Of a DNA stretch of 4,182 bases, positions 1 through 4,182 are shown piece by piece. Source of the stretch: a virus (Duplodnaviria; Heunggongvirae; Uroviricota; Caudoviricetes); the IMG/VR virus record IMGVR_UViG_2534681774_000009. The stretch is one strand, 5' to 3'. How positions within the stretch are numbered: the first letter of the stretch is position 1; each line of letters starts with the position of its first letter. A program made the position numbers and the translations under genes. The notes beneath the pieces are model-generated. The model worked only from the letters and a program-made list of their open reading frames with translations. It ran no database searches and was not told the origin of the DNA.

Positions 1-93
1 GAACGCACACGACTGGAAGCATGGGAACGCTACAGCGTTCTGGTCAGCCGTGTGGATACGGCAAATCCTGAATGGCCACAAAAGCCTGAATAA
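1..93 (+). CDS. Tail fibre assembly protein (Tfa family), 3' end only; gene continues upstream of the window
   Basis: Frame 1 is open from position 1 to a TAA at 91-93 and translates [30 protein letters not shown]. This has the same C-terminal pattern (L..W..Y...V...DT....P..PE) as the minus-strand Tfa at 122-655 and as the lambda Tfa C-terminus recalled from memory. It is absent from the ORF track because no start codon lies inside the window. Confidence 0.7.
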
Positions 94-98
94 AAATT

Positions 99-118
99 AA
101 GGCCCGCTATCGGGCCTT
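99..118. terminator. Hairpin between the two converging tfa genes; likely intrinsic terminator, best oriented for the minus strand
   Basis: AAGGCCCG (99-106), loop CTAT, CGGGCCTT (111-118) forms a perfect 8-bp GC-rich stem. On the minus strand it is followed by AATTTTTATTC (complement of 91-98), a T-run. On the plus strand the downstream sequence GTCTCATT is only weakly T-rich. Confidence 0.55.
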
Positions 119-121
119 GTC

Positions 122-655
122 TCATTCAGGTTGTTCGGGAAATGTTACTGGCAGGCTGGAGGTGTCTGTAGATTCGACTTTCTGCGCATAGAGCATCCAC
201 TCAGTTAATTTTTGTTTATTCTCGTCGGAAATGATGCCCAGCCGTAGCTGTGAGTCCCATAGCTGGGTTTTATCCCTGACAAGTTGCAACAGGCTTTGCT
301 TTTCATTCTCTGCCTGCTGCCTCTGTTCCTCCTCGGTATAAGTTCGCTTTATCACTACGCCATCTTTGAACATCCATTTACCCGAAATATCAGCCCGGCG
401 ATTTGCTGTAATATCTGGAACCTCAACGACGCTTGCGCCTTCTGGATTAATTGCTGAAACATCCTTTTCAATACAAATAATAACGTCGTTGTGGTCATAG
501 ACCATTTTCAACGTATCAGGCTGAAAGTTCTTTTGTTCCTCATACCAGTTTTTCCCATCCTCTGTATAAAGCCATTTGATGTTAAATTGTTTCGTTAGCT
601 GGTATTGCTCTTTTGTTTTAGGGTTGCCAGCAGTAATATTTTTTAAGTGCATCAT
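122..655 (-). CDS. tfa: Tail fibre assembly protein (Tfa family)
   Basis: The 177-aa ORF starts MMHLKN and ends ...LTEWMLYAQKVESTDTSSLPVTFPEQPE, with an internal VPDITANRRADISGKWMFKDG segment typical of enterobacterial prophage Tfa proteins. A GGGGAG Shine-Dalgarno (complement of 665-670) sits 9 nt upstream of the ATG at 653-655. Only 2 nt separate it from the stop of the upstream fibre ORF, consistent with translational coupling. Confidence 0.85.
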   Translation of the reverse strand: MMHLKNITAGNPKTKEQYQLTKQFNIKWLYTEDGKNWYEEQKNFQPDTLKMVYDHNDVIICIEKDVSAINPEGASVVEVPDITANRRADISGKWMFKDGVVIKRTYTEEEQRQQAENEKQSLLQLVRDKTQLWDSQLRLGIISDENKQKLTEWMLYAQKVESTDTSSLPVTFPEQPE

Positions 656-657
656 AA

Positions 658-1806
658 TTAAGTACTCCCCGCGTTATACCACGTTCCATTAATGCAATAC
701 TGAATTGGCCTTGCCTGAGTTGTATCAATTAATTCATCACGATTCCCGTTAACTGAACCCGTAACGACATAACCTGACCTGTCAGACCAGCCGGGACCAT
801 TCCATGTCTGAACAGATGACAGACCGCCCAGGCGAATACCTGTAATAAACCTTGAGTTACATTCTGCCTGCGTATATGCACCAACATCCCCCGCAGAGGG
901 TTTGCGGGTTGTGGTGTAAAACTCTGACCAGTCAGCTTCAAAGCCATAACCATCACGCGCTGAACGATAAAAGATACCGCCGTTCTTATAATTCACGCGG
1001 AACTGTACAGCAGGGCAACTCCCCGCATTCATATTGAAGTGGAGGATTAATGTCGATGCGCCACTGATATTTGCGTTATAGACCCCGCTATTCCAGTTCC
1101 AACCAACAGCTTTATCATTTCCGACAGCGCTTCCTGTTTGCCCTAGAGCAAACGCACCTACATGACTTGCTTTTAATGTGATATCGGAGGAACCATCAAA
1201 AGCCACGCCACTTATTTTTCTGGCAGTTTGTAACTTTGTAGCCGTAGATGCATTACCGTTCAAACTACCATTGATGCCGCCATTAACATTGAGTCCATTA
1301 CCGATCGTAACAGCACCATTGGCGTTGTTAATGATAAGCGGCCTTAACCTATTATAGGTTCCTAGGCTGTTACCCGAATCGGTCAACATGAAGCATGTGC
1401 TTGAACCATCGTTTCGGATAAAGAATCCATAGTTGCCATAGGCAATGCGCAGACCATTCGCCGATTTGGAAATAATCTCGCCAGCGAATTTCGCATAGGA
1501 ACCAGTCCTCAAGACTAACTCTTCCTGAGCATCAGTTGTTCCTGTGCATAAGCGATAAACGTTATTCTCTATTGTTTCATGCCATATGCTTGCACCTGTG
1601 CTGGAGCGGAAACGTCGCAGATACATTTTTGCATCGTCAACAACTGACGTGAGCATGTCATGTTTATACTCACTTTGCGGCACGCCATTGCTATTGATTC
1701 CACCCCGAAGAACAGTGCCACCCGGCATAGGTAAAAATGCCATCTTCACCGAAGATCCAATCACCTGAATTAGTACCATTACCGGTTTCTTTATTCGGCG
1801 CAGCAC
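658..1806 (-). CDS. stf: Side tail fibre protein, C-terminal (distal) segment; the annotated start is probably not the real N-terminus
   Basis: Contains NGNASTATKLQTARKISGVAFDGSSDITL (a tail-fibre motif) and ends ...RPIQYCINGTWYNAGST, resembling the C-termini of Stf-type fibres as I recall them. It lies immediately upstream of tfa. Its first ~21 codons overlap ORF 1691-2611 in another frame (see findings). Confidence 0.75.
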   Translation of the reverse strand: MLRRIKKPVMVLIQVIGSSVKMAFLPMPGGTVLRGGINSNGVPQSEYKHDMLTSVVDDAKMYLRRFRSSTGASIWHETIENNVYRLCTGTTDAQEELVLRTGSYAKFAGEIISKSANGLRIAYGNYGFFIRNDGSSTCFMLTDSGNSLGTYNRLRPLIINNANGAVTIGNGLNVNGGINGSLNGNASTATKLQTARKISGVAFDGSSDITLKASHVGAFALGQTGSAVGNDKAVGWNWNSGVYNANISGASTLILHFNMNAGSCPAVQFRVNYKNGGIFYRSARDGYGFEADWSEFYTTTRKPSAGDVGAYTQAECNSRFITGIRLGGLSSVQTWNGPGWSDRSGYVVTGSVNGNRDELIDTTQARPIQYCINGTWYNAGST

Positions 1807-2611
1807 AATTTATCCGGATGCCTGGTCGTCTGTTAGGGTTATCGACACCATCTTTAAATATGTACCCATCAGTTAGTGTTGTGCCGTCATTTTTCGTATA
1901 TGTAAAGCGGATATGACGGCTTGTATGGCTACTAAAAATAAGATCGCTTTTAGTGGTAAGTAATGGAGCTGTCAGACCTCCTAATAATGTGCCTCCGGGT
2001 AGAGACAGCGCGCCAATGTTCTCTGGTGTCAACGAAATATCAGTAGTGCCATCGAAGGTTACTCCGTTGATTGTTCTGGCGGTCTGTAATTTAGTTGCTG
2101 TTGCAGCATTACCATTGAGGTTTCCAGAGCTATAGAAACCACGACCATTGCTAAAATCAATAATTATGTCGACAGCTATACATTCAGCTTTAGGGTTGGT
2201 TGCCCCCCATTTGTATGTGGTTTGTCCAACAATATAATCCGTTGTAGGGACAACAACAGAAAGCCCCTCCTCCACAAGAACGCATACTGGAAATGCTCCG
2301 CCTTCAATATAAAAAACTGAGCTAACTTCATCGTCTTTATTGCTCATCGCAATAGAATGAATCGCCCGTTCTGCATCCTGATAATGCCAGAACATCCCGT
2401 ATGCGTACCGCCCTCTGTCACTCCAACCAGCAGGCATCACAAAACCATTGAATTCGCAGTTGTTCATGCGATGTGCAGCTTGGCGCGGCGCAGTGGAAAT
2501 AATAACCCGAGAAGCAAGTTCACCATTGCTCGTTGCAGATCTCTTGATGACTACAGGATAGAATTTACCCTCTTCAGCTCCAGAAGGAGCATTGACTCTG
2601 GTGAATTTCAT
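1691..2611 (-). CDS. stf: Side tail fibre protein, middle segment
   Basis: The 306-aa ORF contains NLNGNAATATKLQTARTINGVTFDGTTDISL followed by LSLPGGTLLGGL. It is in the same frame as ORF 2627-3205, separated only by a TAG at 2627-2629 and five codons. The ATG at 2609-2611 is preceded by AAAAAAGGG with essentially zero spacing, a poor independent ribosome-binding site. Confidence 0.65.
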   Translation of the reverse strand: MKFTRVNAPSGAEEGKFYPVVIKRSATSNGELASRVIISTAPRQAAHRMNNCEFNGFVMPAGWSDRGRYAYGMFWHYQDAERAIHSIAMSNKDDEVSSVFYIEGGAFPVCVLVEEGLSVVVPTTDYIVGQTTYKWGATNPKAECIAVDIIIDFSNGRGFYSSGNLNGNAATATKLQTARTINGVTFDGTTDISLTPENIGALSLPGGTLLGGLTAPLLTTKSDLIFSSHTSRHIRFTYTKNDGTTLTDGYIFKDGVDNPNRRPGIRINCAAPNKETGNGTNSGDWIFGEDGIFTYAGWHCSSGWNQ

Positions 2612-2626
2612 CCCTTTTTTAAAGGT

Positions 2627-3205
2627 CTACTTCGGCTTTGCTGTAAACATCAATATTTTTTCTGTTAACGCTGCATCAGTTGGTTCTAATGCTCGGCATT
2701 TGCTATCTCCGGTAATCAGAAAGTTACCGTCAATGTCTAATCCGGCATATTTATTGGTGTTGGTATCAGATTGTAGATGTAACGTCAGCCATGAGCGGTT
2801 GCCACTCCTTATCTCTGAATAAATTCTGAAACGACTCCTCTGTACCCCAGCTGAATTATTCAGATAACCACTTACAATCCCTGACGCGGCTAAATCAGCG
2901 TCTGTTGAGTTAACAAGATTGATACCCTTAAATTGGGGGACGTCCGCAACACCTAATCCAAGATTAGTACGCCCTCCAGAGACGCTGGATGCACCTAATC
3001 CCCCATGAGTAATTGGTAAAATACCTTTTATGCCCAGAAGAGCATTTGATGAACCATCAAAGTCGATGGCGTTATCACTTTGGAGGTCAACTTGAAGCGA
3101 CCTTTTGGTTTTCAATTTCGTCGCGGTGTCGGCGTTCCCTGTCAGCGCCCCGGTGATCCCGCCGTTGAAAGTCTGGCATGCACTCCATGTGTTAGCCGTA
3201 CTCAA
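2627..3205 (-). CDS. stf: Side tail fibre protein, proximal variable segment (silent-copy S'v-like); frame is open upstream to 3283 through the crossover site
   Basis: The 192-aa ORF has GNADTATKLKTKR...IDFDGSS and ILPITHGGLGASSVSGGRTNLGLG near its N-terminus. The track start is a TTG at 3203-3205 with no convincing Shine-Dalgarno. The same frame stays open for 26 more codons upstream (EVSGVIISILNLGLRELGTSGEKIPL), crossing the recombination site, as expected for a cassette that must be fused to a constant 5' part by inversion. Confidence 0.65.
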   Translation of the reverse strand: MSTANTWSACQTFNGGITGALTGNADTATKLKTKRSLQVDLQSDNAIDFDGSSNALLGIKGILPITHGGLGASSVSGGRTNLGLGVADVPQFKGINLVNSTDADLAASGIVSGYLNNSAGVQRSRFRIYSEIRSGNRSWLTLHLQSDTNTNKYAGLDIDGNFLITGDSKCRALEPTDAALTEKILMFTAKPK

Positions 3206-3235
3206 CAGGGGGATCTTTTCACCGCTGGTACCGAG

Positions 3236-3252
3236 TTCTCTTAAACCAAGGT

Positions 3253-3261
<9 letters not shown>
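3236..3261. other. Site-specific recombination crossover site for a serine invertase (hix/gix/cix/pix-like)
   Basis: TTCTCTTAAACC-AA-GGTTTAGGATTG is an imperfect 26-bp dyad with the AAACC-NN-GGTTT core. It matches 19 of 26 positions of hixL (TTCTTGAAAACCAAGGTTTTTGATAA, from memory) and has the same central AA at 3248-3249. It sits exactly between the fibre cassette and the invertase gene and contains the invertase stop codon (3253-3255). Confidence 0.7.

Positions 3262-4182
<921 letters not shown>

Follow-up and report, generated by a model that had tools for sequence, protein, structure and literature searches.

Two tail-fibre assembly (Tfa) genes converge on a single hairpin at the left end of a 4182-bp stretch of phage DNA (hereafter the window; it is the entire draft contig AIHE01000055.1 of assembly GCA_000250295.2), and this raises the question of which kind of locus they mark and whether it still works. 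The original prediction saw in positions 1-655 the hallmark of an invertible host-range segment of the G/C/P type, and this reading is borne out by comparison with known systems, since the layout and the spacings are those shared by the C segment of P1 and the G segment of Mu. We put at about 0.92 the probability that the source is a P1-like (Punavirus-type) plasmid prophage and that this region forms the middle of its invertible C segment, with the switch most likely locked. Judged from its sequence, the window as a whole is the right half of a P1-type C segment. The features are as follows.

1-93, plus strand: 3' end of U (last 30 codons and the TAA stop at 91-93), the contig beginning within the gene; from translation and Pfam
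99-118, unstranded: shared hairpin with an 8-bp stem and the loop CTAT; from folding, a terminator scan and conservation
122-655, minus strand: U', a complete tail-fibre assembly gene of 177 aa encoding the chaperone of the alternative tip; from the ORF list, Pfam, PHROG and PDB
658-3248, minus strand: Sv', a silent second version of the 3' part of gene S that extends from the point of crossover to a TAA stop at 658-660; from comparison with relatives
3107-3258, unstranded: right-hand arm of the inverted repeat flanking the invertible segment (152 nt, 95% complementary, 5909 nt between the arms)
3236-3261, unstranded: crossover site with its central AA at 3248-3249, identical to the annotated cixL of P1
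3253-3767, minus strand: cin DNA invertase gene without codons 1-16; from Pfam (Resolvase and HTH_7) and alignment to P1 Cin
3724-3767, unstranded: remnant of the Cin recombinational enhancer, 44 of 72 bp; from the P1 annotation mapped to the window
3765-4182, minus strand: one end of IS100 (IS21 family), running off the contig; 99.8% identical over 418 bp to the IS100 of the closest complete relative
3834-4182, minus strand: 3' part of istB; from Pfam (IstB_IS21, E=3.5e-43) and matches to annotated istB genes

The plus-strand gene that is cut by the left end of the contig is, as had been predicted, a tfa homologue. Its fragment matches the end of the Pfam Caudo_TAP profile (PF02413; positions 99-131 of 131, E=1.7e-07, 31.9 bits), lies at the position of U in both P1 and Mu, and agrees with the C-terminus of P1 U at 30/30 residues, with U of the closest complete plasmid at 29/30 and with Mu U at 28/30. 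The complete minus-strand Tfa gene expected opposite it is likewise there: the 177-aa translation of U' matches Caudo_TAP with E=2e-36 (125.5 bits), and in these profile searches both translations exceed the curated cut-off of 22.1 bits. Further support for the identity of U' comes from its match to PHROG 136, 'tail fiber assembly protein' (E=1.9e-74), from 95% identity to P1 U' and from a match to the solved structure of Mu U (5YVQ_B, E=1.2e-63). The claim that the two Tfa C-termini are homologous yet diverged also stands. Overall, U and U' are 59% identical, with 88 identities over the first 120 aligned columns and 16 in the 57 columns of the C-terminal part, and this divergence in the C-terminal third fits a role in tip-specific recognition. 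Sv' follows U' on the minus strand, the two cassettes lie tail to tail, and the tip of Sv' (window about 658-1158) matches the Mu S' structure 8JU3 with E=3.6e-105.

Between the two genes we found the single hairpin of the original prediction, a G+C-rich 8-bp stem closing a 4-nt loop (AAGGCCCG/CTAT/CGGGCCTT). The 51-nt region that contains it folds with -22.6 kcal/mol on the plus strand (z -5.6) and -27.3 kcal/mol on the minus strand (z -7.5), and on neither strand did any of 200 shuffled sequences fold as well. A consensus terminator scan detects the hairpin on the minus strand, where it is followed by AATTTTTATT; this T-run would end the U' transcript and has no comparable counterpart on the plus strand. 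The predicted fold and the T-run give the element the clear appearance of an intrinsic terminator for the U' strand. That it might also serve the U strand, and so act as a bidirectional terminator, is an assumption, because a proper T-run follows it on the U' strand only. The hairpin is conserved in the equivalent position in P1, in Mu and in 13 other loci, and neither it nor the convergent gene pair is a product of chance. No Rfam family of structured RNA was found in the window at gathering thresholds, and we rejected an outer 7-bp stem (85-91/125-131) as an RNA element: both genes end in ...CCT GAA T(AA/GA) and converge, so the pairing is a by-product of two homologous gene ends.

If these two cassettes belong to a switch, then a crossover site should be found at each end of the segment. 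The site at 3236-3261 is the sole cix-like match in the window at up to three mismatches, where none is expected by chance, and it lies at the segment boundary beside the invertase gene, as in the other members of the family. Core-motif near-matches in the window are at chance level, with four found and 2.3 expected; one of these four, a two-mismatch match at 846-859, was considered as a crossover site and dismissed for this reason. The partner site would lie to the left of the contig and was sought in the closest complete relative, plasmid NZ_CP066033.1 (L001), which is 97.7% identical over window positions 1-3770. The genes there run in the order Sc-Sv (a 1239-aa fibre gene, plus strand), U (plus), U' (minus), Sv' (minus) and cin (minus). 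At 6046-6071 the plasmid carries an inverted site identical to P1 cixR, about 2.95 kb to the left of the point equivalent to window position 1, within the constant part of the plus-strand fibre gene S and at the outer end of the left repeat arm. This left arm, off our contig, is found there at 6046-6197, so that 152-nt inverted repeats of 95% identity bracket about 5.9 kb. The plasmid has exactly two crossover sites. Of the two outcomes that the original prediction had named as fatal to it, neither was observed. Sv, the partner of Sv', is also present in this relative and off the contig here; from such relatives we infer that the left half of the segment (Sc, cixR, Sv and most of U) exists in the source strain too. 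That the contig stops on the left inside U presumably reflects the repetition of U sequence in other prophages, and that it stops on the right inside IS100 presumably reflects a multi-copy element.

Further clues to the identity of the locus come from comparison with the best-known switches. In the P1 genome (NC_005856.1), U lies at 4066-4593, U' at 4622-5155, Sv' at 5158-6715, cixL at 6706-6725 and cin at 6720-7280. The window reproduces this arrangement closely, with the U stop codon, a 28-nt spacer that holds the hairpin, U', a 2-nt gap and then Sv', and adds to the protein identities given above an identical cixL and an invertase whose retained residues 17-186 are identical to P1 Cin at 170 of 170 positions. 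It differs from P1 in the length of Sv' (about 866 codons against about 519, some 350 longer), which goes with an extra ~1.9 kb (about 1160-3100) that is absent from P1 and present in many P1-like plasmids, and in two kinds of damage considered below, an IS100 interruption of cin and its enhancer and three frameshifts in Sv'. In Mu, U (2566-3093), U' (3122-3655) and S' (3658-4615) are followed by the boundary of the G segment; here too positions 1-1156 of the window are about 95% identical at the DNA level, with equal coordinates within the segment, and the structures of Mu U and of the Mu S' tip both match window proteins. Mu nevertheless differs from the window in carrying gix where the window has a cix site, in the hairpin loop (ATAG against CTAT), in an invertase gene that points away from the segment and in having short inverted repeats.

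Two other placements within the same family deserve to be weighed against the P1 C segment. The contig might come from a different switch altogether, such as Mu G, the P segment of e14/Rac-type elements or that of a P2-like prophage. Its left part would allow this, as BLAST against phage records shows positions 1-1156 to be about 95% identical to the G segments of Mu, D108 and P88 as well as to the C segments of P1, P7 and D6, and the exact U' is found in Mu-like, P2-like and lambdoid prophages too. The rest of the window does not: the crossover site is cixL and not gix, the invertase is that of P1 at every retained residue and is transcribed towards the segment as in P1 and not away from it as in Mu, and positions 1278-3767, which link the long Sv' to cin, are matched only by P1-like plasmids of 90-143 kb and by Punavirus records. 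Taken whole and compared at the DNA level, the window is matched best by E. coli plasmids of this same 90-143 kb class and by Punavirus records, and because of these matches we assign the window to the right half of a P1-like plasmid's C segment and regard an origin in another switch as very unlikely. The remaining placement is a multiple-inversion region like Min of p15B, in which the three minus-strand ORFs at 658-3205 would be separate, exchangeable fibre ends. Min resembles the window in its P1-like plasmid host, its Cin-like invertase and its invertible cargo of tail-fibre 3' ends; the P1 record itself annotates p15B homology around the region, and the three successive ORFs each carry a GNAxTATKL-type motif. 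For p15B, Sandmeier et al. in 1990 reportedly described a cluster of six crossover sites. The window has one and the closest complete relative exactly two, short of the more than two sites that mark a Min region, and with core near-matches no more frequent than chance this points to a two-site switch of the C type and not to a Min-type cluster. In four relatives, moreover, the three ORFs are a single frame of 866 codons, split in the window by 1-bp indels, and a Min-type region is the most improbable of the readings that we considered.

For a P1-type C segment, the mechanism is established knowledge of the Gin/Cin/Pin/Hin family, here applied to the anatomy of the window and its relatives. The constant 5' part of the fibre gene S, Sc, would lie outside the segment, with the cassettes Sv-U and Sv'-U' tail to tail inside it. 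The serine invertase Cin would pair the 26-bp cix site at the Sc/Sv junction with its inverted counterpart beside cin, and a Fis-bound enhancer in the 5' end of cin would assist strand exchange at the central dinucleotide, so that the segment inverts. Each inversion would fuse Sc and its late promoter in frame to either Sv-U or Sv'-U'; the chaperone gene that follows (U or U') would be co-transcribed and its product would fold the matching tip. The central hairpin would end whichever operon is being read and block transcription into the antisense cassette, and the virions would carry one of two receptor specificities. According to published work, the C segment of P1 specifies two alternative C-termini of the fibre that differ in adsorption and host range (PMC10999674).

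The orientation of the window is that of the P1 reference, C(+): Sv'-U' adjoins cin and is silent, whilst U is in the expressed position. Both orientations exist among relatives, as distinct from the source strain itself. In NZ_CP047013.1, the sequence of window positions 1179-3259 lies within the expressed fibre gene, joined to Sc and not to cin, the match stopping exactly at the crossover site and giving way to the constant part. Amongst near-identical P2-like prophages, the exact U' is found on the invertase side in one locus (L008) and on the side of the full-length fibre gene in two others (L011 and L013).

Is the switch still functional in the strain from which the contig came? The invertase is not intact, its codons 1-16 (MLIGYVRVSTNEQNTA) having been replaced by IS100, and cin belongs to the family here by descent. 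The Pfam Resolvase match of the ORF begins at profile position 18, and the first 9-10 codons of the listed ORF (3253-3795) derive from IS100. By homology with Gin, whose catalytic serine is Ser9, the lost segment should include that of Cin. The match to cin extends as far as 3767 and identity to IS100 begins at 3765, positions 3765-3767 being common to both, which places the insertion point at cin codon 16/17; the other end of the element and any target duplication are off the contig, and a further listed ORF, 3834-4127, is an internally started part of istB. The enhancer is not intact either, since only the first 44 of its 72 bp are contiguous and the remainder has been displaced by IS100. 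We searched 5,426 complete E. coli genomes and found the junction between cin and IS100 in none of them. This would fit a private event as well as an artefact; in principle, a misjoin is conceivable in a contig whose end lies in a multi-copy insertion sequence.

A second kind of damage affects the silent cassette. The Sv' frame of L001, followed from within cixL, stays open for 866 codons, whilst in the window stops interrupt it on the way to the crossover site. Three 1-bp indels (at about 1729, 2621-2623 and 2662) divide Sv' into the ORFs 2627-3205, 1691-2611 and 658-1806. As these frames are joined in the relatives and split here by single-base changes, the three listed ORFs are fragments of Sv', and we rejected the idea that they are separate cassettes given the one continuous frame in the four relatives compared. 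None of those relatives has the indels, which are private to the window. Two of the three fall in short homopolymer runs of a draft assembly and could be sequencing errors; we infer that the indels are real. The broken invertase, enhancer and Sv' frame are secondary lesions of a C segment and not the marks of a different kind of locus.

Taken together, these lesions suggest that the switch is most likely locked in a C(+)-like orientation with its unused half decaying. Because IS100 cuts both the invertase gene and the enhancer, the segment probably no longer inverts in the source strain. It might still do so if a related invertase (Pin, Gin or another Cin) were supplied in trans by a second prophage, since complementation occurs among Gin, Cin, Pin and Hin and, in other genomes, resolvase-family invertase genes adjoin the same U/U' pair in Mu-like, P2-like, lambdoid and P1-like elements. 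An invertase from elsewhere would nevertheless have to work with a cis-acting enhancer cut to 44 of 72 bp, and by analogy with the enhancers of Hin and Gin the cut should remove one of the two Fis sites. The three frameshifts in Sv' are also what would be expected if the alternative state is not under selection, and the assembled contig runs without a break through cixL and on into cin, which is weak evidence for one dominant orientation. We therefore consider inversion in trans improbable and favour a switch that is locked.

How new is such a locus? The feature itself is textbook and already known, being the P1 C segment itself and no new example of its type, so what the prediction took for a hallmark is a known locus recognised again. 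Nor is a disabled switch new, since truncated cin genes and damaged C segments have already been published for other P1-like plasmids (PMC6906374). The plasmids pSvP1, pTZ20_1P and pJIE250-3 resemble the source of the window in being P1-like and in having a damaged cin; their truncated or altered cin genes and modified C segments have been read as loss of the tail-tip switch, and in them rearrangements mediated by insertion sequences (IS26 in pTZ20_1P) surround a partial or truncated cin, whilst the C segment is deleted or much altered (PMC6906374). The window differs from them in having an IS100 insertion at cin codon 16/17 and a right half of the segment that is otherwise intact. It would thus represent one more natural phage-plasmid host-range switch disabled by an insertion sequence, of some relevance to predicting, for P1-like plasmids in pathogenic E. 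coli, the host range or the ability to transduce. Beyond correct annotation its importance is small, and a suitable label would be: right half of P1-type C segment, comprising U (partial), U', an Sv' pseudogene, cixL and an IS100-truncated cin.

The long form of Sv' may be of interest to those who engineer P1 tail fibres. Pfam matches in Sv' are to Gp34_trimer and gp37_C, whilst its middle module (about 1691-2611) gave no Pfam or PDB sequence match. It is possible, although we hold the idea only tentatively and think it rather unlikely, that this module adds a side domain or a further receptor-binding domain, through which the alternative fibre would have a host range undescribed for P1; were this true, the IS100 in cin and the frameshifts would be a snapshot of such a switch locking whilst its unused half decays. 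The motif GNAxTATKL(Q/K)T occurs three times in Sv', once in each of the ORFs 658-1806, 1691-2611 and 2627-3205.

A second inverted repeat, of 307 nt and 92% identity, is common to Sv and Sv' within the segment and lies at 1179-1485 in the window and at 7219-7525 and 10179-10485 in L001. Its position coincides with the breakpoints (1179, 1278 and 1295) at which sister plasmids differ in their fibre tips, and it looks like a hotspot of homologous recombination that swaps tips.

The loop of the central hairpin comes in two forms. It reads CTAT in the window (107-110), in P1 and in most loci, and ATAG, its reverse complement, in Mu (3107-3110), L001 (9107-9110) and L014 (about 10546-10549), where the loop alone is flipped, with stem and flanks unflipped. 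Loci L008, L009 and L015 combine an ATAG loop with one stem mismatch.

Finally, elements of the P2-like, Mu-like, lambdoid and P1-like types (loci L008-L017) all encode the identical 177-aa U'. Its gene is always convergent with a U gene, and a resolvase-family gene lies nearby in most of these loci; the U/U' pair moves as a unit between unrelated phage types.
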